The notes beneath the pieces are model-generated. The model was not told the DNA's origin, did not search any database, and worked only from the letters and a program-made list of their open reading frames with translations. A stretch of DNA of 64,000 bases. Source: Convolutriloba macropyga (Eukaryota). The translations under genes were made by a program, and so were the position numbers. The DNA is taken from NCBI RefSeq assembly GCF_964194025.1, contig NW_027451928.1:1-64000 (forward strand), given 5' to 3'. Of the stretch, positions 11,401 to 58,646 are shown in pieces (within the stretch, counting starts at the first letter, position 1; every line of letters begins with the position of its first letter).

Positions 11401-14400
11401 TGGAACTTTTCAACCTATGGCATAAATAGTTCTGACGAAAATACTTCACAAACAATATGAACAAACAAAAAAATCTATTTAAAAGTCTTGTTTAAAAATT
11501 TTATCTATACTTTCTACTCCGCGTTAGTGAAAATATCACCCTACTTTTTTTCTTTTACTATACAATACAAGCAATGTGACGTACAATGCAGCACATGATT
11601 CGTTAGCGAACGTTTGCAATTTAAAAATTTGATGTCATAAACTGGATTGCTGTTTGAAACAAAATAATCTGAAAAACTAAGCATATTTTTAAAACATGCT
11701 GGCCATGTTGATGGAACTGCTTCATAAGTTAGGCCTCGCAATCTTTACCTTTCAAATGACTTCATGGAACCTACTATACGTACCATATTCTTTATGTAGA
11801 AAATCGATTATACATTGTAATGCTCCAAAGCAGGACAAGGGAGGAAGAATTCTTTAACTCCTCCAATTGCACAAAAACTTTTTAACCGAACAATAAATTC
11901 TGATCACAATCCCCCTTTCAACTGATGGTGGTGACAATATGTACAATTGTTTTACCTTGAACAGTACACAGACTAGTGGAATTGGGTTGTGCCCCATCTT
12001 CCTAGCCACAACATCACAGTGCTCCGAGACAGAGTCCTTCTTCTTACTTCCCATCCAGTCCATCGCCAGACTCAGACGATACTCTACAAAATCACAATCT
12101 AAACAGCTCACTCTGCACTGTCAAAATAGAAACAATTTTTAAAAAAAGTATTTAACAGCTCTTCAGTTAAACTAAATGCCAGTAATTCAAAGAAAACCGT
12201 ACAAGAAGCATTACTTCTAAAATGCTGTTGCCACAAAAAATGAAGATGTTGACTTTGATTGTACTGAGTACTCAGAATTCTCAAACCAAAAAAAAAAAAC
12301 AAAATTAGCCAGAAATTTACCATAATTTTAACTTTGTCTTAATAATGAGTCAATTTTTGGTACCTATCTCAGAATCATTAAAACAAACAAAACAGTTCTT
12401 ATAAGTCCTCGTACCACGCAAGGCACCGGAAGGTTGTAATTGGGCGACAAAGATTCATGCACCCTAACTCAGATCTTGACAAATCAGTTGACATCTATAG
12501 CACTATCAAAGAAAAATTGCGTGGCATTTAAGCCTATGGATGATCATAGCTATTTATATGTAGCTTTAGCATTTTTGTAAATGACGTCCATTTTTCATCT
12601 AAGTAGTTGGCAAAAATGAAAGAAAAACTGTAGAAAAAATGTTTGGTTACAACTAATTATAGGTATGGCAATGACAAGAGTTGAGTATGAGAGAACATAT
12701 ATAAATAGTTTACGTTAAATTGCAAATTACTCAGAGTAAGGTCCTCTTGAGAGTGCCCGACGACATGTACGGATACGAAAGTTAATTAAAAAGAAAATTT
12801 GGGCAACACATTCTTCCCAACTGAATAAAAGCAAAGAGGGATCGTGTTACGAAAAGCATCTTGGAATAGAATAAAAAAGAGCACAACAGAACATAGCTGA
12901 CAGCAAATCACGGTGACAGTGATGATGTGACTCTAATATAATTGGCAATATCTGTATCTCAAGGCCGCTCGAGTTACGTGAGTAGTGATGTGTCTTTCAT
13001 GCCCCCCCCCCCCCCCCCCCCCCCCCGTAGTTTGCCCAGAAAGACACATCACTACTTACGTGAATATACACATCATAACCTGGAATCATTTCTTGTATCT
13101 AATTGGGACTTAGTAAAATTAGTCTCCAGTCAATAGGGCATAATTCCGTCAAAAATGGTTATCTTTATGTTAAAGTTTATATTTGTTAAAGGCGGTTTGA
13201 AAGAGAATGTCGAACGACCTCGTGACCTGTCCGTGTTATATCATTAATTATCAGTGTTACAACAAAAAATATTCTTTCTTACACATTCATTGCATCATTT
13301 ACGAGCAAATAAAACCATTTATGAAAAATCACAATAGTTCCCTTAACTATTATAAAGAAAATCTGAGCAGTAAGAGATTAAGGTGAAGTAGAATTGCCAA
13401 ATCAGACTAGAAAACACTTCAAAACGTTGCTTTTTATGTTGTTCGCGGCAAAAGCAATAGATCTTTCATAGATTTCAAATAGAAAACCGACAAGCCTACA
13501 TACAGAGAAAACCCAGATATAAGTTTGCCACTTTTACGTAAGCAACAGTAAGTTGAGTCCCACGTGACATCTCTTCAACATGCTCGTCAATTAATTGAAT
13601 TCGAAATTTTCACTCAAATTAATGGAGGCGCGACCAAGTTGAACAGATTTTAGGTGGGGTCAACTTCCTGTTGCTATCAGAAAACTGACCAACTTCTGTC
13701 TGAAATTTCTCTGAAAGCCGGCTCGTCAATTTTTGTCAAGCGAAATGTATTAAAGTTCTGATAATAATGCCTCGACCAGCATGAAAACCAATAGAAACAG
13801 TGAAAATTATTCTGACAAAAACTGACTTCAAAAACAGGCAGTTGACCATGTAAAACTGCATTTTATGCGTTTAGTTTTGCCAATGAGCGCTTACTTAATA
13901 TCGAAGGTAAGTTAGCACTCTACAGTTTCTTGTAATTTCTCGTAATTTCCTATCAAACATGAAATTTTGATCTCATAAATTATATGAAGCTAACTTACTT
14001 TTGATGTTGAGTATAATATTTTAGCAAAGATTCCTAACCTGAGTAAACATCAGCTGGTATTTCGTTGAATTTGGCAATGAAACAGTGCTTCACCCAATCA
14101 ACTATGATCTCCGAAAACCCAACCAGGGCTAACTCAGGCAACAGCTGTCCGAAATAAACCACATCCCAATTCAACTCTCGCAGGTTCCTCACTGACACTA
14201 TGACCAATAGAATTAATAGATGCAGTCGTTCTCTGACGTCAGAGCAGGTAAGCTGGTACAAGTTGTTTTTGTCGAATTTCTTGAACACCGTTCCCTTCAG
14301 CTCCGCAAAATTGTTCGACATCATCACTATTAAGAGACTCTTGTTGTGCGAATTGAAGGCAACACTGAAAAAAAAAGAATTAATTTCTCCAATGAAAAAA

Positions 14401-17400
14401 TCTATGTACAAATTACAGCAAAATATCATATTGCATTGGAGGGGACAAACAACGAAGTTATACACACCCATTTTCAGTCTACCCCACATTCACAGCAGAC
14501 TGAATCATAGAAAGATACTCCAATGATACTTGGTACAAAACCATCAGGATGCGTACTAATTTGCAGGATGTTTATGTGTTTAAAAAACATAGTAGTAAAA
14601 AGGAGCAATAAATACTCGAGAGGAATGATTCAAACACTGACCTCTGTCCCAGAACAATTCTATGCGATAAGCCACTGCAACTCTAGTCAAGAGAATCAAG
14701 ATCTTATGTGTTGAGAAGGTGAATCAAGTGTGGTGTCACTTTGAATGCTTTATGAGGCGAGGGTAGGGTATAAGGGGAGGGGGAATAAACAGACAGTTAT
14801 TGTGCATGATCCCTGAAGATAACCTTTTGTCACGCCCCTATTTCGTCCCTCATAGTTACGTGATGATATTCCTTAAAATATCCATAAATAAGTGATATAA
14901 ATTAATTAATATTCATTTAGTTTCAAGGCCATTTATAGCTAACATTTCCATCTAGGCCTGTAACCTCTAATTTGTTTATGTATACGAAAAACAACCGCAG
15001 AAGTGACAGTTTAATAGCAAACATATCAAGTGCCTAAAGGCCTCAATATTTACTTTTTTGAGTTTCTTGATGATAAATTCACATAATCAGTAAATAACTT
15101 CATGAGAGATTATGTACTTGGCGAAGTAATTATTCTGATAAAGTAGGTGCTAATACGGAACTTGTATATGTACTTAACAAACATCAAGAGACGTACAAAA
15201 GCCGGAAACCGCCCTACTTGAAAATCAGTAAATATTTGCGAAGGACCAATACAACTGAAGGCACAAAACCTGCGGAACCCACTATCTCCAGAACACCAGC
15301 GAACCGACCCAGAAATCAGTTGATAAAAACTAAAACTTTCTTTCAATTATTGTGACATCTTTCTTAATTCTAACAGAGGAAATAATAAAAGATTGAACTG
15401 GCAATTCTTTTAAAATTCTTTCCAAGTCTGAGACTACTCGTCAGAAATAATGTTGAGATCACAGATACTCCTAAACCAAGGCAACTAGTGGATATATCGC
15501 ATATCCGAACCGCTCAGTAAAAGGCTTTTCCTAGCTAACTTTATTAAAATATATCTGCTAAAAATTGCACTGTGAAACATCTAAATAAGACCTTGGAAAA
15601 TGGCAATAATTACTCTAGATTATCTCCATAATTTGTATCAATAACAACCCACAAAAATACTCTAAAAATCAGTGCGTAACATGGTGACAGGAGTTATTAA
15701 CTGTTTTCCAGTTTAACGGACCGATAATTCGGTTAATTCCTTGATATTTTCGATATTTCCTTTCTTTATTCTGTTGTTTTCTTCCTTCTCTTCTTCTCCA
15801 TTACCTTAAGAGCCTCCAATCATCCAGAACCACATCCAGCACTTCCTTTCCGAGCAAGATGATAACACAAAAAGCAGTAACAAAGGAAAGAATGGGTGGA
15901 AACTGTGTTTGTGTCTCTGTGGACTAAGTGTAACAGTAATACAAAAGTGTTTGAGTGGACAATAACTGGAACAAACTCAACCACAGCCGCCACAACGGAC
16001 AAAAACAATACAGGGTATTTGCAAACGAGGATATTGTGAGTAAATGAATTTGTAAAATTAATTTTGGTGCTTTATTTATGTCAATTTATAAAGAACAAAT
16101 TCTCCCCGCTATTAATAATTGTCGCTCTTCCCCCAATTTTGTTGAACATATTGAAGGAAACCACATTAATTATACCCAAAACAACAGTAAAACGCAAGCT
16201 CAGATAGTAATCGCTTTTTCCTCTTCATTTTATAAGTCTATCGTTATTTATGTGCTAGATAAAGATGACAAACGTGTTGCAATTTATTGGACAGCAAAAA
16301 GTTTAAATCAGAAATCTCGTAAATTTGGACTTATCCGTCACAAACTTCAATCTGATAAAGAAATTAACCTTGATAAGATCATCACTGATTATCAGATAAC
16401 ATCAGAATAATAAATTACTGAAACCATAACTTAATTAATAAATAAAAAAGAGCGCAAAACAAAAGTTTAAACAAAAATAAAAAACAATTATATTTTATTT
16501 CCCCACCCAGCTCCGGAGGTTAATGAATCAAACAGTGACTTCAGTCATTACGCTGTTGCCTATCTGAGTGCAGCTTCCACAAGGCCTGTGCGGTCGTGGT
16601 CCCCACGAATTTTCCTAAACTAAGGGGCACTCTTCAGAGGTGAGACTTCGGCGGCCCATACGGCTTCAACGATATAAGTCTGACGATTCGACCGGAGCTT
16701 TAGGAATAGGTTTATAAGCAGCCCTTCTTTATTATTTTTAGAACGAATGGTTTCAGTAGTTTCTTTTCTGATATTTCTGTGCTATTCATTTAACTGTTTT
16801 CTTCACTTAAATCCCCTTAATCTCTCCATTAAGTTAAGTTAAGCGTGCTATTTAATACTTTAGAACGAAAATAAGACTGATTGAACGAAAAGTATATAGT
16901 CTAATCGGGTAAAAAGCAAAATGGCACACGCGCAGATCAACATCACGCCTTTTTCCGGATCAGAAACGGACAATTTTAACGAGTTCAAACAACTAATAAC
17001 AGGTGCAATCGGAGTTGCAGCAATCGCAAACGCGCAACAAGCGAACTTTCTGCAATTACATTTAAAAGGAGACGCTTTACGATACTTCTTAACCCTACCA
17101 GAGGCTACCAGACTAGTTTTTGAAGACAGTATAACAGCCCTAAGACACAGATTCACGAAGGATGACTTCAGAGAGATCAGAATTATAAAGTTAGAGAATC
17201 AAAAGTTTAATCCAAAAACAGACACTGTTAAAAATTTCTTAGTAAAGTTAAGAACTGAAGCCAATAAAGCATATCCAGCACCTGAAATAGTAGTAGCGCC
17301 AGCAGGAGCAGGTGACCCAGAAGCTCGTAGATTCGAAAGAGAGACAGCAGCAAGAGATTCTGCCCTTCAGATGTCAGAAAATCGAAAAAATGAGCAAATA

Positions 17401-20400
17401 AAGCGCTTCTTTATTAAGCCTAAGCTTTTAGAAAGGCCAGATACAGATACCATTGATCAAATATGCACCTTAGCTAGCCAACAGATTGCAATAAGGGAGA
17501 TGTGTAATAGAGAAGAGTACTTTGACGATGGATTTAATGAAATAACAGTAACAAACACTGATAAAATGTTAAAAGCAATAACTGTTATCTCCAATAATCA
17601 GAAAGAACTTGAGCAGAAGCTTCAGCAGAGAACAGCACCTAAAAATGAGCCATCAGAACAAGGCCCAGTAAACACATTCACACCACATTACCCTCAACAA
17701 GTCTACAAACAAAGTTATAGACAAAATTTCCGCCCACAATACCAAAATTATCGACCAAATTACCCTCAATATCAGTCTAATTATCGTCCAGTTCAGCAAA
17801 ACTATCGGCCCCAGCAACAGTACGCCCCCGTGCTAACAATTACCGAGAGTTTAGACCATAATTTAATGCCCCTAGACCGTTTCATTATAACGAACAGCCA
17901 CAAACTCGTAACTATTGGACCGAACCTTCAGACAGTCCCCAATTTGTTCATCCAGCTTATGTTAATAGACCAGTTTATCGGTTCCCAACAAAAAATACCC
18001 CACAAAACCTTCTTAGACAGGGTATAGTTTACGATAGTCCAGCACAAGACCGATACGGTATGCAAAAAGCAAAAGAATTTAGTCGTGCTGGTGCACTCCA
18101 AAGTAGAAATATGAGAGGTATGAATTTCCCATTTAATCAACAGAAAAACTAATAAAGCCACCCAACTTTAAAAAACAAAATAAAAATTATAAAAACTCAG
18201 TTAACCATTATAACGAAAGCACGTCTAGTCCTAGTTTAGATAAAGTAATTGATCCAGTTTATAACAAAAGTAACAAAAAGCGTAGAAAACGCAAAAGTAA
18301 TAATAATAAATGTAAAGTGAATAAAACTGTGCAACTCCCAACACAAGTATCTCAATCCACACCAAAGCCAATACCACATGTTCAGCAACTATTTAGCATT
18401 GTCCCACTTTTAGGCAGAACATTATCCTATGTTAAAGTTAAATTTAATGGAGAATTAGAAAGACGCGCACTAGTCGATACAGGAGCATTTGCAAATGTGA
18501 TAAGTCGTGAATTCTACAAAGAACTAAGTAACACAAATATTAACTCAATAACAGAAATAGAAAAACCTGATCTAGATAAAGTTAAAATGGCAAACGGCAA
18601 TATAGTTAAAATTGATAAAGCAATTAAAATTACATTTAAATTGGGCACACAAACATTTACAGAAGATTTCCTTGTATTAATTGTCACAACTCCTGTAATC
18701 CTAGGCAACCCATTCTTTGTTAAACATAAAGTTAGCATCTGCCCAGGACAAAGTTACATTAAATTCCCTGATCAAACACTACAAATAAGTGAAATAAAGC
18801 CAGAAAAGCAACCCAGAACAGTTGTAAAACGAAAAAAATTTGGAGTTTATACACAGAAAAAGCAAGTTTTACAGCCGAATCAACAAGCAGTATTAGAATG
18901 TAAGCTTTATGATAAACTAGAATCATTCACTGACCTTTGTGGAGTAATAATTCCAAACGAAATCTTTGAAAAAGATAGTGAAGTAATATTAACATCATCT
19001 CTAAGTAAAGTTGCTGAAAAAAACATTCTCTACATCTATGTCCTGAACATTACTGACCACCCAATTACCATAAATAAAGGCGAAGAAATAGCCAAATTCT
19101 CATTCTTAACATCAGACCAAGCTGAAAAGTTGTTAGAAGTAGATCCTCAATTAATAAATGTTGCAAAAATGAGCGAAAATTACTTAACAGAAATAAATCA
19201 ATTAATTCAAGTTACAGACACCCCGAAAAGAAAATCTCAGCCAGCGAAACCGGCCCCGGAATATGAAAAACTATGGTTCCCAACTCCTGAAACGTGCCCA
19301 GATCCGACAAATTTGTCGCCTTTGCAGAGAGATCTATGAGCAACTGCTAAAACTGCAAGAAATGGAGAAATTAGATCCAAAGGGTAAACATCAGGATAAA
19401 ATAACATTTTTAAGCAAGTTTCCGTGGGAAAAATCAGCCCTCAATGATGAGCAAAAAGCAGTAGTAGGTGAACTACTAGTCGAATTCAGTGATATTTTTG
19501 CGAAACACAGATTTGACGTTGGATATAATACAGATTTAAAAATAAAGTTAACTCCAGAAAGAAGCATACCAATTTACGAACAAGGCCCTCCAACGCCCGT
19601 CCATTTGAGAAATGAGTTACAAGTAGAGCTCGCACTAATGCATTATTACGGACTGATAACAACCTTGTCTCAATCAAGATATAGTAGTCCACTTTTCGCT
19701 CAAAGAAAGAATTCAGGAAGACTCAGACTATTAATTGACTTAAGTAAACCACTTGTTGAAAAATGACTACGTGAATACCAATTTCCCGATTTCCAACATG
19801 AGTGACGCAATAAATTACTTTGCCGGGAAAAAATTGTTCACAAAACTTGACTGTTCTCATGCATATCACTGTGTGCAAATGGCAGATGATGTATCAGTGC
19901 AACTGCTAGCATTTAACTTTGCTTCGAGAACTTATGCATATAAATGTCTCGCACAAGGATTGAATAAGTCAGTAACTGGATTTAGCTCTTTCATTAGACA
20001 TTATTTGGACCCATGTTTAGCATCAGGAAACTGTACCCAGTTTATGGATGATATTGGAAATGCAGTAACAAATTTTGAACAATTGGTACCCTCTTTAAGA
20101 GAAATTTTTACGTGTATACGTCAATCTGGATTAAAATTGTCACCCGAAAAGTGTGAAATAGCAACTGACACAATGAAATTCCTTGGAAATAACATCAGTG
20201 CAGAAGGAATATCACCAGAAAAATCAAAAATAACGAAATTTCTTGATAAATTTAAAATGCCGAAAACAACAAAACAAGTAAAACGATTAATCGGCTTCAC
20301 GCAATTCTTCCGAAATTACATTCCTAACTTAGGTGAAAAACTAATGTCATTTTACAAGCTCCTGAAGAAGGATGCAGTAATAGAAACCGCAGAAGAACAT

Positions 20401-23400
20401 GTAAAAGCATTAGAAGTAATAAAGAAGGATCTAATGGAAGCAACAAATGTAACATTGCGATTGCCAAAACCAGGCCTACAGTATGTAATTCTTTGCGATG
20501 CTAGTTACCACGGTGCAGGTTTTGTACTAATGTTGGAAGACTACGTAAACGAAACAGGAAAGAAAGAAAAGAAAACATACGCTCCCGTATCGTTTGGATC
20601 GCATTTGTTTAATGCTACACAATTAAAGTTCTCAATTTATTACAAAGAGTTCCTAGCCTTGTACTATGCGCTGGACTACTTTTCACACTACATTTGGGGA
20701 TCAAGCAAACAAGTAATTATACTCACTGACAACAAAAGCCTCACACAATTCTTCCAGTCAAAAGTAATACCACCATCTCTTTGGAATTGTTTAGACAGAA
20801 TACTCGCCTTTGATATAGTAATTGCTCACATTCCTGGGCGCGCTAATTATGCTGCAGATTTTCTCTCCCGAATGGAGAATGACAAAACAGCAACAATGTC
20901 TTTAAAGTTAACAGATAGAATTCCAGTTAGAGAAATAGAAATTGATACAGAAGCACAAAACCCTGATGTTGAACTAAATGTACTGTTAGATGCAGAAATA
21001 TCCAATGATGAAGTAAATCCAGAAGTATTAGATGCTCTCAAAAAACTCGGATATTACGAGGACTACAAAAAACGGCAAAGTAATTTACCAGTAACAGAAA
21101 TCCAAGGACTGTTTAAACTAAAAAGAAAAACAGAAATAAATTCAATTGAGTACCCAAATCCATTAGATGAGTTTCCAGATCTTACAGACAACTTAATTAG
21201 CCTTAATTTAGCAGAAGAGCAGCAAAAAGATACAGACATTAGAACAGTAATAAGCTGGATTCAACAACCTAATCAACAACCAGATTTAAAGTATGCTTCA
21301 ACCAATTTAAAAAAGTATCACAAACACTTAAACAGATTAATTCTTGAAGGGAATGTCTTATACCGGAATTTTTATGATGATACTGGAAAAGTACTTCATA
21401 AACAATTCTGTGTACCTAAGCATTTGTGGAAAGAGACTATATATAGGTTCCAAAATTCACAAACAGCAGGTCACTTAGGCACCAAAGCAACAATTCAGGA
21501 ATTTAGAAAGCGATTTTATTATCCAGGCTTCACTGAACATTTCATTAGCTTCATCAAAAACTGCCTCACTTGTCTTCAATTGAACAGAGTACCGAAAAGC
21601 CACATCACACCGAAACTGCAACCAGTCAGTTCACTACAATCATATCCAGGAGATATGCTCCAAATTGATTTAGTAGGCCCCCTAAAGTCATGGCAGTATA
21701 AGTATGTTTTGAGTGCAATAGATGTCTTCACAAAGTACCAATTCGCAGTTCCATTAACAAATGGATATGCTGACACAGTAGCCCGAGAACTAGTAAAGGT
21801 GTTCTTCCAACACAGCTACATTCCTCAAACGATACTTAGTGACTTAGGAACCAACTTTACTTCTGAATTAATGTCAGAATTAGCAGGTTTATTAGAAGTA
21901 AAGCTAAAACATGCCTCACTAAAGCACCCTCAGACTATCGGAGCAGTAGAACGATCTCACGGACCACTGAAACGAATTCTGAAACTTAATACAGAAGAAC
22001 AATGGAAAGACTGGCATAAATATGTTCCTCTTGCAACCTTTATCCATAATACTTCATATCATTCAGCCACAAATTGTTGTCCTTCAACTCTATTCCATGG
22101 CAGAGAACCCATAAAACCCCTTGACGTACGGTTCTCCAGAAAAGTAATGGAGAACAAATTGTCCGAATACCAGTTAATCCGTTAATTGCTGATGAAATTA
22201 GACAGCAAGAACCAGAAGTTCGTGTTCCTCTTGTATCATCCTCATCAGACGATGAAATGTTTCTACCAGCTCAACAGCCACAGCCGTCAATAGTACCATT
22301 TGATATTGAATCGCCTCCAGAAACACACGAAGAGCAATTTGCTTTAACTGATAGAAAAATAAGAGCCAGACCTTATAATCCAAAAAGAAAACCAGAGAAA
22401 AGTGCTTTCAAATCACCAGAATACCAACAAAAGAAAAATGTGCAAGGATTTAAAATAACTAGACAAATACAGTTACATGATGAAGATAGATCTAACCCTC
22501 ACCTAACCAACCCAGTCAGAAGATCAGGCAGTCCTAGACCAAAAAACGCTCGTGCAAGACTGGAACAAGAAGAAAAACGTGAAGCAATAAAAGCATCAGC
22601 ACAAGCATCAAAACAGTCAAATACTCCAAGTAGAGAGACAAAACTAGATCAAGTTAGAGCAAGTATAGCAAAATATTCAGGGAAAAAGCCCAGCAGTTCA
22701 ACAAACAAACCAGTAACCAGATCTCAAACAAAAAAATCTTCACCAGGCTCATCTAATCAAAATTTAAACCATTTTAGTCAAGAAATAAATGCAACATATC
22801 AAAGTTCCCCAACAGATATCTTATATTCACCATACTCTTTTGCACACTGTATATCAGCTGACCTTGCAATGGCAAAGGGATTAGCCCGACAAGTCAAAAG
22901 CTGGTACCCAGCAGCCCCAAGTGCAATTAGACTTAGATATCCACCAGATATTGGCTCAGTTTTAATCTACTTCGACCCCATTTCCGAACGTTATATCTTC
23001 AGTTTAGTAACAAAATTCAGATACTACCACAAACCAACTTACGAATCTGTATTAGCAAGTCTCTATGAGCTGAGAGAAATAGTAATAGATGCAGGAATTT
23101 CACACTTAAGTCTTCCAAAACTCGCCAGTGGCTATGATAAATTAGATTTTAACATCATTTTTGAGCTTATATGCCAAGTCTTCGACCCTCTACCCATAAC
23201 CATCTATATCCATTGGTATGTACAGACCCAGTACAGTCCAGCAGTACCCTTTATCCGCCCCAAAAGCCCAACAAGCCTGAGCAACTTAGCCCTAAAGCCC
23301 AAAAATCGCCAAAAACCGAAAATTTTTGACCTCAAAATCCAGTTATTTTGATATATCTCCAAAACTACTTGTCCGAACCTGGATTAACCTATTGTTCTGA

Positions 23401-26400
23401 AAATCCCTCATCCAGTAGAAGCGATTCCAGCCTTTATTGACCCCATTCGACCCGTTCTAAGTACCAAAAACTTAGTCTAAAATTGACCCTTCCGAAAATC
23501 CTGGGTTCAACTCAGAAAAACAGTCATAAAATTGTGAAAAAAGCCCCGATCATTCCAAATTTTTGCGCTGCAGCATTTTTCAAGCCGACATGCAAATTTT
23601 GAAGCGATTTGGAGAACTTTAAAAATCGAGTGACGCTGGAGCCCTCAATTTTTGACACTTTTCGAATCCGCTCGAATTCAATGATAACTCCTACAAAAAA
23701 CCTTCAATTGACCCATTTTATAGCCCTAGACCATCCTACTGCTCACGCTTGACACCCCAATACCCAAAAATTCCGTCAAAAATCAATAAAAGTTGAGTTA
23801 TGACAAAAATACCGAACCCTACCAAAGTGCGTTAAAATTGATTAAAATGTAGTGTAAATTATATCCCAAAAACATGCCAAAAACTGTCCCAAATGCCTCC
23901 AGCAGCTACCCCCAGCTACCACCTACATGGTACAAACTCAAACAACCGTTAAAACCCAATATTTCCAAGTATATATTGAAAAATGACGAAAAAACGAAAA
24001 TTGCGCTTCTGCTTCAATCCTCCGCTTCAAAAATTTTGTCATTTTATTCTCCACCTGACCCGATAAAAGCCACCTATACCACCTACAAACCTAGTGCGAC
24101 CCCCCACTAGCCTCGTAGTACCATAAAAATCAGTCCCAACTCATCCCAGTATCAACCATGAAGACTTCAACCCAAATAAGCTCTGAAACCGCCACAAATT
24201 TGTCAGGAAAAATTCAGTTATTTCCCACTAGAGTCAAAAAAATTAACTTCTGACAAAAATTAACCACACCATCAGCACTCCCACATCTATAGCTCTCAGA
24301 ATATGCACTCCCAGCCCCCTAGTGCCAATACAAGACTGCCAAAGTAACGAAAGTCACAAAAAATCGAGTGAAATTTCCGAAAAAAGTGATCAAACATGCA
24401 TCTTAATACCCGAATATGCCCAATTTTATTGTTAATTCAGTTAGCCCCACTCATAAGCAGTCCAACCATAGCAATATCAATCATTTTGAACAAGTTTTTC
24501 TTAGCCTCATAGCCAATAACCTACCCCCTATCTGGGCCTTTTAAAAAAACCCAGGTTCACTGCAGCACAAACGTTATAACTAGAACAAACGTTAAAAAAT
24601 AGTCAAAACCACCCAAATTTTTGCGCTGCAGGGTTTTTTGAGCCGACAAAGCGATTCACCAATTTTGAGCTCAATCGAAGCATTTTAAAAATTGAGTGAC
24701 GCTGGGCCCCTCAATTTGGAGACTTTTTGAAAATTCACGAACATGTTCGGAAAATCCAAAATATGATCGAAAACCTGATATTATTAGCTTAAAACATCTG
24801 CATGCTCAAGCTCTACACGCCCATATCAAAAATATTGAAAATTATTAAGTAAAATGTTGAAATAATAGCAAAAAACTGAAGCCTACCAAACTCTTCTCAA
24901 ATTCGTCAAAACAGAGCAAAATTTAGAACATAAAAATAGTATCGAATAGCCGAATTATGAGCCCATATCCAATATTCAGTCTCCCTAGTAGTTACCCAAG
25001 CCCAATAAACCCATACAATCGCACAGAAATTCATAAATGTTGAAAAAAGTGAAAAAACCGAAAATTGCAGATATTTCACAAAATTTGGTCCGAAATTCTA
25101 AACTGAAAAACTTAATATATTATAGTCAAATAATGCATTAAACCACACCAATAGCTGCCACCAACATAGTACTCGCTAGTATGACCCCCACAATTACTGT
25201 CAAAAATCAATTCTCTTCAATCTATGTCAACTTATGCACCAAACATGACGCTTCACAAGTAAAAAATCAGTACATTTCACAGAAAAACTGGTATAAAACC
25301 TAAGTTAATCAACTCCAAACCTACCAAAATGCTACCCCTGATAGCCACAGATATCAGTAACAACAGTTAGCACCTGATTTAGGCCACTAGAGAATCACCA
25401 GACTGACACATGTCTCGAAGAAGCTCAATTAGTGGAAAAATCATGCTTGAAAATTCGCATTTTGGACCCAAAAATCAACGTTATGACCCGAAAAATAGCT
25501 TCAAACCCTATAATTCATTAACATACATTACAACAAACCAAACAAACGTGAATTAAAGTAACAAAACTTAGTGAAAATTGCGACAAAACACAACAAATAC
25601 CTGACTTCCGACCAGTTAAAGTGTAGTACAGAGCACTGAGAGCACACAGACCACCAACTTCGGCCCTCACACCAGCCGCACCAAGCAACTTTGGAGTTTT
25701 AAATGACACTATGTCCACATGCTCAGCATAAATGTCATTGTAAAACTCGTACCCCAATTCGGCACACACATTTGCACGCAGATTTGCACGGAAAAAAGTG
25801 CAATGCACCTCTTTGCCGTGCATCTTCTTCACGAAACATGGCACACACTCATGAATAGCTCTAAATAATAAGCATACACCACTCCACAATTAATAATACA
25901 TGTAACAAACTAAAGAAAAACAAATAAAAATATCAATAAATATTATAAATATATGCAATTACCTCTCAACAGCGGCCTGCAATCCCCCCATCGACCGTGG
26001 AAAGAAGAACCCAGCAGCTTTCAGGCGATCGACTTGTGACCTCACACGAGTAATGTGCTTTGCAGAAGCACTAAACCCGACATGAAGCGAAGCCAACTCC
26101 TGAGACACCATCTGCTGAGTTGGAATTTCCTTCTCCTGAACTTGCATCTCGCTGCCCACCTTCACTTCCACTTTGTACATCAACACCTCCCGATGTACGG
26201 CCAATTCTGATGTTCCCACGTTCTTTGTCCCCAGTACCATATGTTCTGCTTTGTCCCGATAAGCTCGTCGCTCCTCAGATGACCGAACAAATGATGGATA
26301 CACCCATTCAGACTGAGACAACGACTTGCTTCGCAAGAAAGTCAGAAAATCCTCATACTGGGCAACATCCATGATTCACAATAACTATCTGAAAGTTTAA

Positions 26401-29400
26401 AAAATTGAGTCAAACTAGTTATTAAGCAAGCAGAAAGTTAACGTGTTAAGTCAAAAATGAACAATCACAGGAATGAAAACACACAAACAGAACAAATTAC
26501 GCAATAAATGCCAAGGACATTTAAATACCATGCTATAATGACCGCTAATAGTTAATAACACATGCCGCAAAACACACAACAACGCTCTGAACATACAATT
26601 GCACCCTTCACTAGCATTCACTTATTTACTACGTCTCTCTAATTCTTCCTTTTGTCCCCTACTTATATCCTCAACCCCCCCCCCCCACAAAACAAGTCTT
26701 GATATATTAATTACTACCATATTACTAGCACCATGTACGAAGTATATTAGTAGCACCAGTCAATATTACATGTAAAACTACAATATTAAAGTCAGTCCCA
26801 ACAGTCAGTCCCTTACACAGTTATATTAATATTAATATTACACAATATTACAACTATTAATATAGTTAAATAAAATAAAAATAAATAATAAGTCACACTG
26901 AATCCTCCCTGACAGCCTCCTCTGATCTTTTCACTTCCCCCTTCTCCTCCTTCGATTTGCCCACACTCCCAACAATCCAGATACTAATGATAATAATAAA
27001 AAGAATACTAATATAATAATAATCCACCACTCAGTCCCACCACCACTCCCATTATCAATAACTATATCATCTACTGCTGTCATATTGCACTTTGGATGTT
27101 TCAATCTTGACCAGTGAACAGCGTTCCTTCCGACAAACCTGGTCCCAGTTGTGCAACATCCAATAATTAAAGAGGAAACAGTGATATTAAAGCACATGGT
27201 GCAATATTGTGGGCAAAATAATCTGAAAAACTCGAAAAAACATGTAAAGACTGCATAATTCGACCCCCCCAACCACTATCCCCATCATCACACACCCATC
27301 ATTCAACCAAATAACCACACTTCAACATGTTTAAACACCATACTCAGTAGTAATATCAATAAATACACACATCAGCACACATCACCTAAAAGTAGAGTAC
27401 ACCTGAAATAAACAAACATCACATAAACAAGTGACATATTGAGAAAACTAGATCTAGAAGCCCGAGTAAAGTAACTAAATGAGCAAATAAACACCGGAAG
27501 ACCAAATAGAGCCAGTTGAAACACTCAGAAGAGCCACATCAGTAGAAGATTGTCCTGAAACAAAGTCGATATTATTGAAATATGAAAATGTTACTCACAA
27601 TTGTGTTAAATCTCTTACTTTTCGGCCCCACTTTTGAAACTCCGATCAATACAGAAGCAGCTCTGGATAAAGGCATCATCTTCCATAAAGAAGGAAAGAT
27701 TCTGATTACCGAAAAGTTCATAAATGTGGAATTTTTAGTACCGTTTCCTCGCTATAATTTCACTATCAGACAACAAGTAGAGACTCTACTTAATGATCTC
27801 TCGAAAAAGTGGATCACGCAATCGGAATTTTGCAACCTTACCCATAGCACTACTTACCGGAACCAAACAGCTGCCTTCAATGTTGATTGGCTTTACACAA
27901 AAATACTCAATGAAACCATAGAAGCCGAAATTGAAGTCCTCAAATTGTGCAACGAGACTGAAAAACTCCTTACCAGAGTCAAAGAAGACCCTCACACTCG
28001 ACAAAAACGAGCCGCCCCGCTTGCAATAGCAGCCGCAGTTGCTGGAATTGGACTCTTTGGTCCAGGAATCGCAATGAGTAGCGGAGGATGCGGTGGAATT
28101 ACAGGAATTTTCGGATCTTGTCAGCGAACGTCTTAAAACGCTGAAAATATTGATCGATTAGCTAACAGTTTCAATAGCCTCAACGACTATATCATGGAAA
28201 TCGGAGCACAAACCGATGAGAAATTTTTCCTAGTTGCTGACGAACTTGCAAAGGTTTAAAAAGTTCAAAACGAAATGCAAGAAAACCAGAACAGAAACTG
28301 GAAACTAGTAGAGGAACAGTTTGCAATTATAGATCACAATCTGAACGCACTAGCAACCTGCATGGAAATCCAACTATCACAGCAACAATTGAATATTAAC
28401 TTTGATACAGCAGCTTCATTACTTCTCACTCTTTATGCAGATATTAAAAGTTACAGAGCAGCCTTATATTCTTTTCGAATTAATGTTATAAACGCAATTC
28501 CTACTTTGCTTGACAAACGTCTTCCAATCTCCTTAGTGCCTCGTAAATCTTTGATAAAGATCCTTGATTCAGTCCATGATAGCCAAAAGAACGCCCCAGA
28601 TCGTCTAACTTTGGCAATACCCATGACTGACATCCTTTCGTACTACGATGCGAAATTAGTACAAGAGATTTCGACAGTTGAAGACGGACATTTACTGACA
28701 CTAGCCATTCCCCTAGCCTCTAGCCAGACAGTGTTCGAAGTTTATCGTGCAATAGTAATCCCTATGCCTCAAAAGGACTCCGTAGACGCCTTACGATATG
28801 TAATAGAGGGGAGTACTTAGCAATCTCAGAAGGACAGATGGAAACCACAGTACTGACGAAAGCCCAGTATGACAACTGCCTTGGATCGCCACGATACACA
28901 ATCTGTCATGAGACAATGGAAACCCACCTAGGATTCTCCTCGTGTCTAGCAACCCTCAAGTTTCACCACACAATCTCAGCATTGAAAGTATGTGATACAG
29001 AGAAGGTTGTGTTACCCAACCCAGAACGAGCACAGAACCTCGGATATGGAATTTGGCTCCTCACATCAGCTTCAAGTGATTATACCCTTAGTGAGATTGG
29101 TATGGACGAAAATGGCCGACACATCAATGTTCCTCACAAAGGTTGTAACATCTGTTTAATCACATTAAAATGTGGACATACAATGTTCAGTGACAACATT
29201 AAGATTCGAGCTGATTTACAAAGTTGTCAGTACCTTCCAGCAACCAGAATTAATGTTAAATTATCAGATCCACTTGCCCATTTAATTGATTCAGTGCCTA
29301 ACAAACATGAACTTCCGAAATATGACTCTCCCACCGAAGCAAATCTCGATTTATTGAAGAAAGTTAAAACGGAATTTATTTACTCGAACAGAAAATTATC

Positions 29401-32400
29401 AACAGAGTCACTAGATGCCATAGCAAAGCCAATTACCACTGAAATGAAGACATTCCAGCCAGCACTAATTGATAAACTTGAATCTTACGTACCGATCAAA
29501 CTTTCCCTTTCATTAACCATTATTGTTTTTATCGGAAATCTAGCGTTACATATTTTCTTCATGTTCTTATACCATAAAGTAGCCTTTGTACGAAGAATGG
29601 TACCAAATTTCATGAAGCTCAACGGAACCAATGTACCGCTAAACCCAGTAGTTTCCGTGCCCAAACATCTAAAAGCAGATGTAGTCACAACTCTTGCCAA
29701 ACAACTCAAGCAACCTCCAACAGTCATATCTCCAGAAGAACTTGGAACACTCAAGCGACGAAGACGAAATTCCATGCCAACAACTTCGGCTCTCTCATTG
29801 AACACCCTGGAACGGTTCAATACAGAAGACGAACTGGAGAATACAGCTCAAACCCCAGAGGAAAGTATGCTTTGAGTTCTTGATAGTCTTATATAAGTTT
29901 GACAAGTATTATTCCTCTCACACATTAAGTATCTCTTCATTCATTAAGCTTAACTAATCAGTGCTTCATAAGTTCAAACTAGTACCTGAATTCACAACCT
30001 AAACCAGTGCATTAAACCATCCCTCCAGTTTGACCATATGTGTCTCCTCCTCAAAAGTTTAGAGCCATTATTCACAGAAATAACCATGATTATTCCCAGT
30101 GCTAATTCCCGCTGTTCTTTTAACCGTCACTTTATCTTATGTCTTCACTCTTTCTTCTGAATGAGCGCATTTTATCTCCCCTAAATGTTTCTTTAAAGCC
30201 TTTAACCTTGTCTCAACCTTCTTCATTTTAACTTTATCTTAACTTAACCTTTATTTCTCTTAACTTCTTTAACTCTTTTTAACCTTAAATGCTTTCGTTC
30301 AAAACTCTTTTCTAAGAAAACATAAATTGGGTGGCTCCAACAAAAATATGTTTATATCCTTATACTCGTGCAGATTATACGTTTTATAGAAAAATTGTAA
30401 AAACCCAGTTCCTTCAAAATTTTCATGGAAAATTTTCCTAAAGTCGGGTAGTGTCACGCCCCTATTTCGTCCCTCATAGTTACGTGATGATATTCCTTAA
30501 AATATCCATAAATAAGTGATATTAATTAATTAATATTCATTTAGTTTCAAGGCCATTTATAGCTAACAATTCCATCTAGGCCTGTAACCTCTAATTTGTT
30601 TATGTATACGAAAAACAACCGCAGAAGTGACAGTTTAATAGCAAACATATCAAGTGCCTAAAGGCCTCAATATTTACTTTTTTGAGTTTCTTGATGATAA
30701 ATTCACATAATCAGTAAATAACTTAATGAGAGATTATGTACTTGGCGAAGTAATTATTCTGATAAAGTAGGTGCTAATACGGAACTTGTATATGTACTTA
30801 ACAAACATCAAGAGACGTACAAAAGCCGGAAACAGCCCTACTTGAAAATCAGTAAATATTTGCGAAGGACCAATACAACTGAAGGCACAAAACCTGCGGA
30901 ACCCACTATCCCCAGAACACCAGCGAACCGACCCAGAAATCAGTTGATAAAAACTAAAACTTTCTTTCAATTATTGTGACATCTTTCTTAATTCTAACAG
31001 AGGAAATAATAAAAGATTGAACTGGCAATTCTTTTAAAATTCTTTCCAAGTCTGAGACTACTCGTCAGAAATAATGTTGAGATCACAGATACTCCTAAAC
31101 CAAGGCAACTAGTGGATATATCGTACATCCGAACCGCTCAGTAAAAGGCTTTTCCTAGCTAACTTTATTTAAATATATCTGCTAAAAATCGCACTGTGAA
31201 ACATCTAAATAAGAGTAAATGGCAATAATTACTCTAGATTATCTCCATAATTTGTATCAATAACAACCCACAAAAATACTCTAAAAATCAATGCGTAACA
31301 CCTTTTATTTGTTTAAAAAGGCTACCTTAAAGTTGTAGCTTCCAGAAGGATGATAACTGAATGCACACATATGTACATGAAGGCCAGAAAGAACTGGAAG
31401 AGGAATTTGAAAAGAGCTCTCAGAGCTGATATGGACACCATTGCATGATCCTTTTGAGCTATACGCGTAGCTGTCCAAAACACAGTGTCCATCAGGTCTT
31501 GTCCTAGAGTAGAGAACAGTCTGTCTGCAACGTCCAGCATATTGAATATTATGTACACTTTCAAGACATTCTGGCCACGCACCTGAGAAAACAGAATTGT
31601 TCAAGAATGTAGACTCGTTTTCTCGGATAGGTGAACAACTCAAACTCTAACGTCATCAATACATAATTGATTAATTTTTTTCCAAACTAATGCCAACCAA
31701 CATAACTCTTAACGTAAAGCTATGTTCCATTTGTTACTTAACTGATTACAACGGTTTTTAGCTTGCAATTAAAAAGGATATCCGTACAAGATATCTTCAG
31801 TCTTCAAAGCGACTTCATAACTTAGCAGAAAGAACCCAGAAATTTATACATCTAAAAACTAGGCGTAAAGCTTGTTGAAACAAAAATCTAGCAATACGAG
31901 TGCTATGAAAAAACATTTATGATACGACATAAAATTGTTTCAATTTCAGACAAAACATGAGTTATCCATCCATCATAGAATACGCTTAAGATTGAAATTT
32001 GTTCATTCTTTTTGGTGAAAATTTCCCATGCTCGGCAAGTAGTTATCGCAAAATTACAAAAAACATTTAAAATATCAGTTGACAAAAATATTAATAATTT
32101 ATAATTTTCATATATTCGTAATATTCATAAATATTATGAAAATATTCATAATATCACTTCAAATAAAATTCACAGGACGAAATTTTTTTTAATCACGAAA
32201 ATGTGTTTTAAAATATTTTACCACTTTACCTGATGGTACAGAAACGACAAGTCTATCCACTGAAGGCTGCAACAACAGAACACAGTCAATAGCACTCTCA
32301 CAATATCACAAATCTGAGCGGGCTCTAACATCCGTTTCCTCCTCCCGTCACTTGTCTTTCTCTGGCGTCCAAAAAACGACAATAAAACCGACTTGATTAT

Positions 32401-32709
32401 CAGAAACAGTCGAATAGGGAGCATAGCTAGCACAAATATGAACGAATCCAACGCGAGCATAAATCCATACAGGAAGAATTTTTCCAAATGAAAGGGAATT
32501 CTGATCAACGTGTAAACTTTCTCAATTTTCTCTTCATATTTTTCGTGTTCGTTATTCAATTCGTACGTGTTCTTGATTTCCATTTCAAAGTATTTTGTAT
32601 ATGACATCTTGGACAAGTTTGAGACTAAGTCATATTGGAAATTGGCACTTTTGACATTCTCGCTGTTGTAATTTGCTTTCAGCTCGCGAGTTGTAGAAAA
32701 TGCAGCCAT
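8461..32709 (-). CDS. TAPT1: Transmembrane anterior posterior transformation protein 1 homolog, 6 coding exons; intron 2 holds the LTR element
   Basis: Exons 32709-32230, 31582-31326, 14364-14039, 12083-11956, 11306-11181 and 9090-8461 join in frame at GT-AG sites. Motifs: RGQNVLKVYIIFNMLDVADRL, VAFNSHNKSLLIVMMSNNFAELKGTVFKKF, VDWVKHCFIAKFNEI, VARKMGHNPIPL. Confidence 0.93.
9421..9933 (-). mobile_element. Helentron-like non-autonomous element (HINE family 1), diverged copy
   Basis: Carries both family ends: CATAGCTGGCAGATTGCCAAAAATAGCAGC and AATAATAGCC...GCGGCTATTT. Confidence 0.55.
12982..13055. mobile_element. 74-bp hAT-like mini-MITE
   Basis: Perfect 17-bp TIRs (GTAGTGATGTGTCTTTC at 12982-12998; GAAAGACACATCACTAC at 13039-13055) around a poly-C tract. 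Flanked by the 8-bp direct repeat TTACGTGA (12974-12981, 13056-13063). Confidence 0.75.
14828..15681 (+). repeat. 5' LTR (854 bp)
   Basis: Direct repeat of 30452-31300, with about 10 substitutions and one 5-bp indel by eye. Candidate initiator TCAGTT at 15316-15321 and AATAAA at 15384-15389. Confidence 0.97.
15682..15694 (+). promoter_or_regulatory. Primer-binding site, tRNA-Leu-like
   Basis: TGGTGACAGGAGT directly abuts the 5' LTR. It is one mismatch from TGGTGTCAGGAGT, the complement of a typical animal tRNA-Leu 3' end. Confidence 0.8.
16078..16410 (+). CDS. 110-aa leader ORF upstream of gag, unknown function
   Basis: ATG-initiated 333-nt open frame in very AT-rich leader DNA; no recognised motif. 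Confidence 0.4.
   Translation: MSIYKEQILPAINNCRSSPNFVEHIEGNHINYTQNNSKTQAQIVIAFSSSFYKSIVIYVLDKDDKRVAIYWTAKSLNQKSRKFGLIRHKLQSDKEINLDKIITDYQITSE
16921..18152 (+). pseudogene. gag: gag, with a frameshift at ~17829 and a stop at 17859-17861
   Basis: Capsid-like N-terminus (ITPFSGSETDNFNEF, LQLHLKGDALRYF, LRHRFT, VKNFLVKLR) and a Q/N/Y/R-rich tail. The shifted frame ends ...NQQKN* at 18152. Confidence 0.88.
18143..18152 (+). promoter_or_regulatory. Putative -1 gag-pol frameshift site G AAA AAC TAA
   Basis: The heptamer sits on the gag stop. The -1 frame from 18149 is open into the protease ORF at 18317. Confidence 0.65.
18149..22185 (+). pseudogene. pol: pol (protease, dUTPase-like spacer, RT, RNase H, integrase) with frameshifts at ~19330 and ~19743 and the integrase C-terminus lost at ~22151
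   Basis: Protease ALVDTGA and VILGNPF. RT SSPLF..LLIDL, KLDCSHAYH, QGL and FMDD. RNase H LCDAS, KEFLA, LTDNK and ADFLSR. Integrase (Q)..GHLG..C..C with IDLVG / SDLG / VERSH. Confidence 0.95.
22152..23351 (+). CDS. Low-complexity linker plus TARG1/OARD1-type macrodomain (~22780-23215), probably the original C-terminus of Pol
   Basis: SFAHCISADLAMAKGLA, YIFSLVTKFRYYHKPTY and LSLPKLASGYDKL align with TARG1 LAHCISEDCRMGAGIA, YIYYLITKKRASHKPTY and LSMPRIGCGLDRL. The frame is open from the integrase break point, upstream of the ATG at 22257. Confidence 0.88.
   Translation, partial: EQIVRIPVNPLIADEIRQQEPEVRVPLVSSSSDDEMFLPAQQPQPSIVPFDIESPPETHEEQFALTDRKIRARPYNPKRKPEKSAFKSPEYQQKKNVQGFKITRQIQLHDEDRSNPHLTNPVRRSGSPRPKNARARLEQEEKREAIKASAQASKQSNTPSRETKLDQVRASIAKYSGKKPSSSTNKPVTRSQTKKSSPGSSNQNLNHFSQEINATYQSSPTDILYSPYSFAHCISADLAMAKGLARQVKSWYPAAPSAIRLRYPPDIGSVLIYFDPISERYIFSLVTKFRYYHKPTYESVLASLYELREIVIDAGISHLSLPKLASGYDKLDFNIIFELICQVFDPLPITIYIHWYVQTQYSPAVPFIRPKSPTSLSNLALKPKNRQKPKIFDLKIQLF
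23400..25520. repeat. Diverged ~1.06-kb tandem duplication inside the LTR element
   Basis: CCAAATTTTTGCGCTGCAG..AGCCGACA..GAGTGACGCTGG..CCCTCAATTT occurs at ~23555-23650 and ~24613-24720. Further matches at ~23820/24885 and ~23990/25050. Boundaries approximate. Confidence 0.65.
25601..26372 (-). CDS. Spliced antisense gene: integrase-type H2C2 zinc domain plus OTU-like Cys box (Ginger-like, no DDE core); 3' end unresolved
   Basis: Exons 26372-25963 and 25860-25601 flank a 102-nt GTAATT...TTTAG intron and join in frame. This gives LH(x8)H...FFFP...VERAIHECVPC, then VCAELGYEF...VGGLCALSALYYTLTG. Next donor CAG/GTATTT at 25600. Confidence 0.72.
26931..27197 (-). CDS. Small antisense single-pass membrane protein (88 aa from ATG 27197, or 50 aa from ATG 27083)
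   Basis: NGS sequon, hydrophobic stretch WWIIIILVFFLLLSLVSGLLGVW and basic tail NRRRRGK. TTTTTCAG acceptor 25 nt upstream of the first ATG. Confidence 0.55.
   Translation of the reverse strand: MCFNITVSSLIIGCCTTGTRFVGRNAVHWSRLKHPKCNMTAVDDIVIDNGSGGGTEWWIIIILVFFLLLSLVSGLLGVWANRRRRRGK
27582..29875 (+). pseudogene. env: env, class I fusion glycoprotein (F-like), with stops at 28134 and 28257 and a frameshift at ~28810
   Basis: Signal peptide, N-glycosylation sequons, furin site RQKR (27999-28010) and fusion peptide AAPLAIAAAVAGIGLFG. Followed by a heptad-like helix, the LAIPL..FEVY..IPMP motif, a Cys-rich region and TM LSLSLTIIVFIGNLALHIFFMFLY. Confidence 0.92.
30440..30451 (+). promoter_or_regulatory. 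Polypurine tract (weak)
   Basis: Purine-rich AAAGTCGGGTAG immediately before the 3' LTR. Confidence 0.5.
30452..31300 (+). repeat. 3' LTR (849 bp)
   Basis: Direct repeat of 14828-15681; ends ...GCGTAACA, followed by the TSD CCTTT. Confidence 0.97.
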
Positions 32710-33360
32710 TTTGTGAAACAAAGACAACCTGAAAATGTGTCAAAGAACGAGCATAGCAAACATATTTTAACAGTTTTGACCATTAAGAAATTCAATAGGT
32801 TCGAGAAAAGCTGATTCAGTATTCAATAGGGGTTCCAAATTCAGAAATTACGGCAATGCCTCAGTCTGCTAAGACAGGTATTTTCCATTTCGTCATTCTC
32901 AATTATTAATTCCATTCCAGAAAAATCGATTCTATCAACTTTCGGCTAAAGCATCGATCATGAAAAAGATTCTTATCTTTTTCGTCTCCATTGAAGTTTT
33001 CAACACAAAATTCATTCAGTTTTTAAGTTACTCGGAGGTTTTGAAAGAATCTAGCTACATAATAGCCCTTTCCGGTCAAAATTATCAATAATGATTATGG
33101 AAAAATATCTTACCTATGGTCAACAATTTTGCAAATACTGCAAAAACAAAAAAGCTACCTCTACAAAAAAAAAAGACTTTATTGCAGCTCAATTAGCAAA
33201 ACCTCCTGGCCCGTTCAAAAGGCAACGCATTAAAAACTCTAACAGCAACTGAACTGCAATTTAGTACAAAGAATTGGCACTAGCTTATCAGTGCTTATAA
33301 ATGTGCACCCATAGTAAACAACACGATCCCTATAACTCATCTCCGAAAAATAAAAAAACA

Positions 33361-35616: not shown

Positions 35617-58646
<23,030 letters not shown>

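Follow-up and report, generated by a model that had tools for sequence, protein, structure and literature searches.

The closest described relatives of the element reported here are the metazoan env-bearing Ty3/Gypsy elements termed 'ancient errantiviruses' (PMC13524379), with which it shares the gag-pol-env order, LTRs, an F-type-like env match and multiple near-identical copies. Animal elements of this kind have been described as gag-pol-env only, whereas the present lineage has four or five selected accessory units, with 2.5–6 kb of cargo between pol and env that sets it apart from the elements as described. The first filter of that survey allowed a pol-env gap of 1 kb and a total length of 10 kb, with a manual extension of 3–5 kb, and because of these limits cargo-bearing elements could have been missed, suggesting that surveys with a pol-env gap limit overlook complex elements; the terms 'OTU' and 'antisense' are absent from its main text.

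Ginger1 transposases (PMC2836005), compared by description, resemble an antisense protein of our lineage in their C-terminal OTU and 1–4 GT-AG introns, and may also do so in their N-terminal YPYY/H2C2 region, but the antisense protein lacks both the DDE core and the GPY/F motif, and its gene is carried by an LTR element, on the reverse strand. In plants, nearly every active copy of the Retand/Grande elements (PMC11963269) has, between pol and the 3′ end, a conserved antisense gene whose origin is transposase-related, although these elements lack env, their gene encodes the TRP28 domain of unknown function, and the word 'intron' does not occur in the available text. An orchid Gypsy element with a captured AlkB demethylase (PMC9289625), rotifer LTR retrotransposons with an ORF3 of DEDDy/GDSL/TM type (PMC5408684) and fish epsilon-like endogenous retroviruses with a macro domain (PMC4977317) are alike, as far as these reports are available, in having fixed extra enzymes (2-oxoglutarate dioxygenase, macro domain) or exchangeable extra ORFs; the present lineage differs in its antisense OTU or JmjC gene with predicted introns, its env, its membrane-protein gene and its Pol-fused macrodomain. 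Among titles and opening lines of abstracts, a scope outside which lie Repbase and most subscription journals, no OTU gene in an LTR element is described, and a search on macrodomain, LTR retrotransposon and Gypsy returned no paper. The bioRxiv supplements of a chromatin-fusion survey could bear on the question of OTU genes in LTR elements.

The window analysed here, a 64,000-nucleotide stretch of Convolutriloba macropyga DNA, holds a decayed copy of a high-copy, recently amplified env-bearing Ty3/Gypsy retrotransposon. Its 5′ LTR (14828..15681, + strand) and 3′ LTR (30452..31300, + strand) have TG..CA ends and align with 838 identical positions, 11 mismatches and 6 gap columns (1.3% divergence), and the element is flanked on both sides by a 5-bp target-site duplication (14823..14827, + strand, repeated at 31301–31305), which matches in 9 of 10 copies. 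The initial annotation, which described a 16.5-kb LTR-bounded unit with a target-site duplication and gag, pol, env and extra coding modules, stands as regards the unit and its modules, and requires correction in its length, in treating a macrodomain as a separate gene and in the completeness of the antisense gene. The length is that of a deleted copy, as 7 of 9 other copies measured span 18.5–18.8 kb, and all 10 other full copies compared contain ~735 more bases at 22151 and ~1.0–1.5 kb more at 25530/25531, marking two deletions in the window copy. Searches found no Rfam match, no tRNA in the 64-kb window and no relatives among viral and metagenome contigs.

Downstream of the 5′ LTR lies a leader ORF (16078..16410, + strand; 110 aa) under purifying selection, without a Pfam match and without a match in families B–F, for which a lipocalin-like lead in the atlas (0.86) falls below the 0.9 reliability level. 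The gag gene (16921..18152, + strand), which is frameshifted in the window, and pol share a −1-frame overlap at an A-run site that recurs at the end of gag in each of the six families. The pol gene (18137..22769, + strand) encodes protease, a weak dUTPase-like stretch, reverse transcriptase (RT), RNase H, integrase and a low-complexity linker, with the order of protease, RT, RNase H and integrase confirmed by Pfam; frameshifts and the deletion at 22151 interrupt it in the window. In the env-like gene (27585..29875, + strand), broken here by stops and a frameshift, a hydrophobic N-terminus, a basic cleavage-like site and a C-terminal membrane segment are visible by eye. Pfam gives a weak Baculo_F match to this frame (E 0.039 for the window copy and 0.002 for a different one, the latter at 17.2 bits under the 24.1 cut-off), and the protein has no match among PDB sequences.

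Between pol and env, an antisense gene is modelled with five predicted exons encoding a protein of ~385 aa. The window retains only exon 1 (25963..26372, − strand), which encodes an N-terminal extension of integrase type together with both His of an HHCC zinc domain, and exon 2 (25601..25860, − strand), which encodes the zinc-domain CxxC, a linker and the motif of the OTU catalytic Cys, whose codon lies at 25646; the OTU body and catalytic His, encoded by exons 3–5, are deleted. Other copies complete the model: 14 of the 43 carrying all five exons have an unbroken gene, the predicted splice dinucleotides are intact in 43–50 of 45–51 covered copies per site, and indels are ~10 times as frequent in predicted introns as in exons. 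The gene is common to families A–F, whose RTs are 56–77% identical to that of the window element. GT-AG intron positions recur across these six families, those after exons 1 and 3 being exact in A–F, and the zinc-domain His, His and CxxC and the OTU Cys and His are invariant throughout; within the window element's family, the catalytic Cys is retained in 47 of 52 copies and the catalytic His in 43 of 45. In four runs of unrecorded kind, none of the joints listed (15 of 26) fell at a predicted intron, which is evidence neither way.

The domain content of the antisense protein, an integrase-type N-terminal zinc domain followed by an OTU fold, was assigned by profile and structure comparison, and makes the protein a predicted deubiquitinase. 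A profile-profile search returned OTU with a probability of 96.4% (E 1.1e-9; reversed control 0.2%), the target profile being built from Helitron OTUs of the same genome that themselves match OTUD3, OTU1 and viral OTUs; taken by itself, the window family did not outscore shuffled sequences on the OTU profile, as many as 9 and 31 of 200 scoring equally high. For a model of the OTU part built without any OTU rows, the 15 best VIA matches were all OTU domains (low Z of 3.9–4.7, rmsd 3.7–4.7, 100–115 aligned residues), as were the top 19 Foldseek matches among those listed, at a low pLDDT of 54.7, with viral OTUs among its neighbours. For the exon 1 model, the best two of 48,161 chains were the N-termini of foamy-virus and Ty3 integrases (Z 4.2 and 3.8, both low), and the zinc-domain profile match is weak (probability 7.8%). 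Foldseek gave no match for either model at E ≤ 0.001, Pfam and PDB sequence searches with the exons and with X-containing read-throughs yielded no OTU or H2C2 match in any family, and an OTU-like atlas lead for exon 4 (0.84) is under 0.9. The helix motif WG..E, which we take to be canonical for OTUs, is altered. In each of the six families ~60 residues separate the CxxC from the catalytic Cys, with no DDE core; weak tests found no longer exon 1 homologue such as a donor transposase, and no long transposase frame was found for the antisense protein. The claim of a spliced antisense H2C2/OTU-like gene thus holds by profile and fold, for a gene of which the window lacks three of five predicted exons.

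Beyond what had been annotated, we found that in seven sister loci a JmjC gene fills the OTU slot, adjoining the same small antisense membrane-protein gene. It matches Cupin_8 and JmjC, with one of four full-length frames above a Pfam cut-off, and has the HxD..H iron triad; PHF2, PHF8 and KDM7A are its only PDB matches at E<0.01 (nearest E 1.5e-4 to 7e-4), which makes its product a predicted enzyme of demethylase type. JmjC enzymes also hydroxylate non-histone targets. In the integrase tree, which like our other trees holds no named reference elements, the JmjC loci are nested among OTU families, and JmjC apparently replaced OTU in the same slot more than once.

Between pol and env, this env-bearing Gypsy lineage reserves an antisense slot for a membrane-protein gene and a predicted-spliced enzyme gene, and we consider it an even call that the enzyme would remove host silencing marks. 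A putative anti-silencing role is our best reading of the antisense enzymes, and a likely one. An antisense promoter would produce a spliced mRNA. The introns would persist since they are on the strand complementary to the packaged RNA, from which splicing would never remove them; intron-containing captured genes could thus be carried, giving the lineage a means of retaining introns within a retroelement. Through its zinc domain, the OTU would be anchored to integrase, DNA or chromatin and would there strip ubiquitin or a ubiquitin-like tag, and the JmjC enzyme of the sister families would perform equivalent erasing on methyl marks. Several loci hold gene-less copies, which suggests that the products would work in trans. 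More tentatively, and somewhat short of even, we suggest that across a deep env-bearing lineage the antisense strand is a protected, exchangeable slot for intron-containing erasers with an anti-silencing function, either a zinc-guided OTU deubiquitinase or a PHF8-like JmjC demethylase. If true, these would be retroelement-encoded anti-silencing factors that take away repressive chromatin marks, and the lineage would be the equivalent, in animals and outside Retroviridae, of complex retroviruses. The swap of OTU for JmjC within a single slot is a pointer to the host barrier being fought, which becomes testable with two small enzymes, known assay types and many natural variants.

Possible, though in our view unlikely, is that the zinc-domain/OTU protein instead helps or regulates the element's own integrase, docking on the integration complex and shielding Pol or integrase from ubiquitin-driven degradation or tuning integration, with JmjC serving a separate function. 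The modelled N-terminal half, an integrase N-terminal fold without the catalytic core, is consistent with this idea, as is the OTU borne on the transposition protein itself in Helitrons and, by description, in Ginger1 (PMC2836005). It leaves unexplained, however, the apparently repeated JmjC replacement in the same slot, and copies without the antisense gene occupy 8 of the 31 young loci sampled, which also argues against it.

Behind the integrase and linker parts of pol is a TARG1/DarG-class macrodomain (22770..23213, + strand), similar to a TARG1-like PDB chain (E 6e-15). It terminates the Pol frame, 1938 aa long in one copy, and is therefore the C-terminal domain of Pol; it appears separate in the window, where it was annotated as its own module, because of the deletion and frameshifts. 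TARG1/DarG (ALC1-like) macrodomains (PMC7050489, as far as available) share its sequence similarity and, in the window element's family, the positions of the Lys/acidic dyad, 51 of 52 copies retaining the equivalent of Lys84 and 48 of 51 that of Asp125; that paper writes Glu125, where the PDB chain aligned here has Asp. The element's domain differs in its fusion behind integrase and in a dyad that has degenerated in roughly half of the aligned relatives, with Lys and Asp both retained in only 7 of 14. It would be a separate gain, binding or removing ADP-ribose near the integration complex.

The initial annotation had paired this domain with the OTU, in the manner of coronavirus nsp3, as accessory genes acting on ADP-ribose and ubiquitin signalling; taken further, the two would jointly antagonise immune signalling through ADP-ribose and ubiquitin and might serve an infectious, env-dependent phase. 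In the window element's family the catalytic residues of both domains are conserved and both domains are under selection, viral OTUs are among the structural neighbours, and env is strongly conserved (dN/dS 0.07 in both tests described below). Yet in families D and E the OTU gene comes without any macrodomain match, all seven JmjC loci have a macrodomain with no OTU, the catalytic Asp motif is missing in families B, C and F, and the two domains lie on opposite strands in different proteins. This decoupling across families makes a coronavirus-style pairing weak and, in our estimate, unlikely; what endures of the earlier interpretation is an env-bearing Gypsy lineage of complex make-up whose accessory genes are heritable and selected.

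The other antisense gene in the slot, placed head-to-head with env, encodes a small single-pass membrane protein (26931..27222, − strand) with an invariant C-CC-C ectodomain; its start exon is tentative in the window family, and sister families have a signal-peptide-like start. Like sORF2/FAST of MDG1-group elements (PMC11952523, as available), it is short, crosses the membrane once and, in the window element's family, has a basic patch after the membrane segment, but it is antisense, occurs alongside env, has a Cys-rich ectodomain and lacks an N-terminal myristoylation motif, none of 10 aligned proteins starting with MG.

Selection on the cargo was assessed by comparing shared with singleton variants in 61 copies (14–56 per module) and young with old subfamilies. 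All selected cargo modules gave dN/dS values of 0.02–0.37, against 0.60–1.23 for non-coding controls (0.74–1.16 for five controls, shared versus singleton). Antisense exons 1–4 gave 0.25 when pooled (shared versus singleton, p 9e-18) and 0.02–0.22 between young and old subfamilies, with exon 1 at 0.22–0.27 over both tests; the macrodomain gave 0.12–0.15 (0.15 shared versus singleton), the leader ORF 0.13 (shared versus singleton) and 0.07 (young versus old), the membrane ORF 0.31–0.37 (0.37 shared versus singleton) and RT 0.03 (shared versus singleton). Purifying selection was thus found for all modules except exon 5, which looks neutral (0.63–0.82). The cargo is common to copies and, apart from the leader, to sister families; the leader and the membrane protein stand as annotated. 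The region 23215–27580 is present in other copies, and its contents are common to young and old ones, excluding a one-off insertion. That the cargo is a neutrally decaying passenger, whether left by a nested DNA transposon or captured from the host, is very improbable: the introns and the Ginger1-like order of domains hint that it arose at the DNA level, and many copies are broken, but purifying selection, conserved splice sites and persistence across families so divergent in RT refute it for exons 1–4, the macrodomain, the leader and the membrane ORF, leaving exon 5 apart.

Between the macrodomain and the antisense gene, a non-coding spacer with internal repeats (23214..25530, no strand assigned) ends at the second deletion of the window copy; a six-frame scan revealed no coding window or hidden exon, and its divergence is ~3 times lower than that at synonymous sites. 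Some copies have a cargo deletion in common, and a single deleted lineage was considered and rejected as their source: these copies are mostly not nearest neighbours by flanking DNA, and recombination or recurrence is therefore preferred.

The env-bearing Ty3/Gypsy element of the window (family A) extends from 14828 to 31300 on the + strand, with LTRs of 854 and 849 bp and a 5-bp target duplication, which confirmed the LTR-bounded unit described in the initial annotation; Pfam recognised protease, RT, RNase H and integrase, arranged as is usual for Gypsy. The element is inserted between two minus-strand exons (14034–14489 and 32218–32739) of a TAPT1-like DUF747 host gene, and lies antisense in the intron. 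A first look at the genome returned 892 LTR, 577 cargo and 183 exon 1 candidates, which are not copy numbers. Since LTR pairs differed by 0.1–2.9% in the 10 full copies measured, with the target duplication matching in 9, the family expanded recently. Decay is evident in the window copy: it lacks ~735 bases at 22151 and about 1.0–1.5 kb at 25530 relative to all 10 other full copies, and retains only exons 1–2 of the minus-strand gene between pol and env. Between protease and RT, a stretch at ~18845–19120 has a weak dUTPase match (E 0.06) and is strongly selected (dN/dS 0.05); one relative, P0076, has PF00692.

In copies other than the window's, this antisense gene is predicted to comprise five exons, separated by GT-AG introns 72–111 bases long. 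The predicted splice dinucleotides are intact in 43–50 of the 45–51 copies covering each site, and old copies carry 2.1–4.4 indels per 100 bases in introns versus 0.05–0.41 in exons. The gene is unbroken in 14 of 43 copies covering all exons, and two recurrent structural variants have removed exons 1–4 from 8 of the 31 young copies in the sample, which fits a product acting in trans.

To measure selection, variants common to at least two copies were compared with singletons among 61 copies, picked from search hits rather than at random. dN/dS was 0.03 for RT, 0.04 for integrase, 0.07 for env and 0.10 for gag, and the expectation of dN/dS below 1 in the cargo was borne out: leader ORF 0.13 (p 1.5e-4), macrodomain 0.15 (p 3e-14), membrane ORF 0.37 (p 0.016) and antisense exons 1–4 0.27, 0.35, 0.22 and 0.14 (pooled 0.25, p 9e-18). 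Exon 5 gave 0.63, which was not significant. A second comparison, of 29 young with 14 old copies, agreed (exons 1–4 0.02–0.22, macrodomain 0.12, leader 0.07; exon 5 0.82). Five non-coding or wrong-strand controls gave 0.74–1.16; the minus-strand spacer control was below 1 in both tests (0.74, p 0.04; 0.60, p 7e-4), and no coding window was found in the spacer carrying it. Spacer 23214–25530, non-coding with internal repeats and no Rfam match, is constrained, because its divergence between subfamilies is ~0.10–0.15 versus 0.35–0.55 at most synonymous sites.

The antisense gene had been called H2C2/OTU-like. Sequence-library searches did not recognise it, but the OTU assignment was upheld by profile and fold ranking. 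A profile of eight OTU domains of this genome (one checked member is a Helitron), itself similar to OTUD3, OTU1 and nairovirus OTUs, aligned with the six-family profile over 119 columns (probability 96.4%, E 1.1e-9; reversed control, 0.2%). Families B–F, sister families in the same genome, each scored above 200/200 shuffles on this profile, whereas family A alone did not. For a model of the OTU part built without OTU rows and with intron codons included (pLDDT 54.7), the top 15 VIA rows were all OTU domains (Z 3.9–4.7), as were the top 19 among the Foldseek matches listed, none at E<=0.001. The exon 1 model (pLDDT 75.9), compared with 48,161 chains, ranked foamy-virus integrase residues 8–90 first (Z 4.2, rmsd 4.2, 81 aligned) and Ty3 integrase 26–125 second (Z 3.8); Z values are low for both models, and weight rests on the ranking. 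Domain order and introns are like those of Ginger1 transposases (PMC2836005). A search for a donor found none. At L125:99–7643 (-), a Helitron protein of 2514 aa begins with an OTU domain, and several long OTU frames resembling it exist in the genome.

A library search yielded 23 fragments, two distant ones of which led to further loci in the genome. Five of these loci, families B–F (13–16 kb; RT 56–77% identical to family A; LTR pairs 98.7–100% identical), each combine gag, pol and env with the antisense gene seen in family A. Boundaries after exons 1 and 3 fall at an identical motif in all six families; for family D the one after exon 2 is unclear, and exon 3 is frameshifted in the copy from family C. 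Two His, a CxxC, a Cys motif and a His motif are invariant throughout. Three fragments of the same OTU-like gene (P0022, P0023, P0020) are only 30–41% identical to their best matches in this genome; the gene is therefore likely to be present in other genomes or in families missing from the assembly.

In one copy whose pol frame is intact, the macrodomain, previously taken for a separate module, forms the C-terminal end of a 1938-aa Pol. It matches human TARG1 (E 6e-15) and DarG (E 1.8e-5), and family A copies retain the equivalents of Lys84 (51 of 52) and Asp125 (48 of 51). The antisense gene is common to all six families; the macrodomain was found in A, B, C and F and had no match in D or E. 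In an RT tree of 60 rows (six families plus 54 of the 120 relatives listed), A, B, C and F form one clade (100/99), with D and E outside. The C-termini of Pol relatives P0044, P0045, P0120 and P0130 are macrodomain-like and strongly degenerate.

The small antisense membrane ORF gave 68 matches with a family F copy as query, and four Cys are invariant in 10 aligned sequences. Among 11 membrane-ORF loci compared, the OTU gene was matched in 3 (one by exon 1 only) and unmatched in 8. In 7 of 7 OTU-negative loci whose gap was listed, a JmjC-like frame occupies the slot between pol and env, matching the OTU gene in strand and position (L115–L121; e.g. L120:3720–4337 +, L116:3736–4335 +), behind a shorter, unassigned upstream frame (~100 aa); the eighth, L114, also matched in the genome search for the JmjC gene, which gave 103 matches. 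Among them are more distant copies, about 30% identical, as well as genes arranged in tandem at C2:27.10 Mb and C11:25.44 Mb. In Pfam, the frames match Cupin_8 at E 2.5e-6, with one of the four full frames passing the cut-off, and JmjC at E ~0.002. PHF2, PHF8 and KDM7A were the only PDB entries matched at E<0.01, and the HxD..H triad is intact. An integrase tree of 32 rows, not all of them full-length, groups six JmjC loci in one clade (97) and places the seventh beside an OTU locus (100). All of these lie within a larger clade (100) that also contains OTU families B, C and F; A, D and E fall outside. From this nesting, OTU is likely to have been the earlier cargo among the loci sampled, with JmjC likely either brought in repeatedly or passed on through recombination. 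Judged from these sequences, the slot is exchangeable. Two membrane ORF alleles (window 26931–27222, L014:4322–4666) are ~73% identical in DNA among otherwise 95% identical copies, which suggests recombination or diversifying selection.

Introns on the antisense strand would never be spliced from packaged sense RNA, so the slot could hold spliced genes. Two interchangeable kinds of eraser-type enzyme would then strip host silencing marks; the enzymes nearest to the JmjC gene are H3K9/H3K27 demethylases. Interchangeability, the integrase zinc domain of the OTU protein and the nearness of the JmjC gene to demethylases point to removal of silencing marks, a predicted role that we consider evenly balanced. 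The antisense OTU protein, which has no space for a DDE core, might instead serve as an integrase helper, a prediction we regard as doubtful, and antagonism of immune signalling by the cargo seems slightly less probable still. The coronavirus-like pairing of macrodomain and deubiquitinase, proposed initially, is weakened by OTU without a macrodomain match in D and E, by macrodomains co-occurring with JmjC, and by a catalytic Lys and Asp motif retained in merely 7 of 14 macrodomains aligned.

Each theme of this lineage has a precedent. These are env-bearing Gypsy elements across animals (PMC13524379), antisense ORFs in plant Retand elements (PMC11963269), the AlkB demethylase captured by an orchid Gypsy element (PMC9289625), macro domains in fish ERVs (PMC4977317) and OTU domains in Ginger1 and Helitrons (PMC2836005). 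Among the titles and abstract openings listed by a literature search on OTU, none reported an intron-bearing antisense OTU gene in an LTR element.

Upstream of env, family E (L087/L088, oriented 14725–15189) carries an additional ORF of 155 aa in the sense direction, and family D has ~2 kb of further sequence that is unassigned. Elsewhere in the window, dispersed and tandem repeats cluster at 34650–46000, where recent duplications of at least 300 bp are 100% identical.
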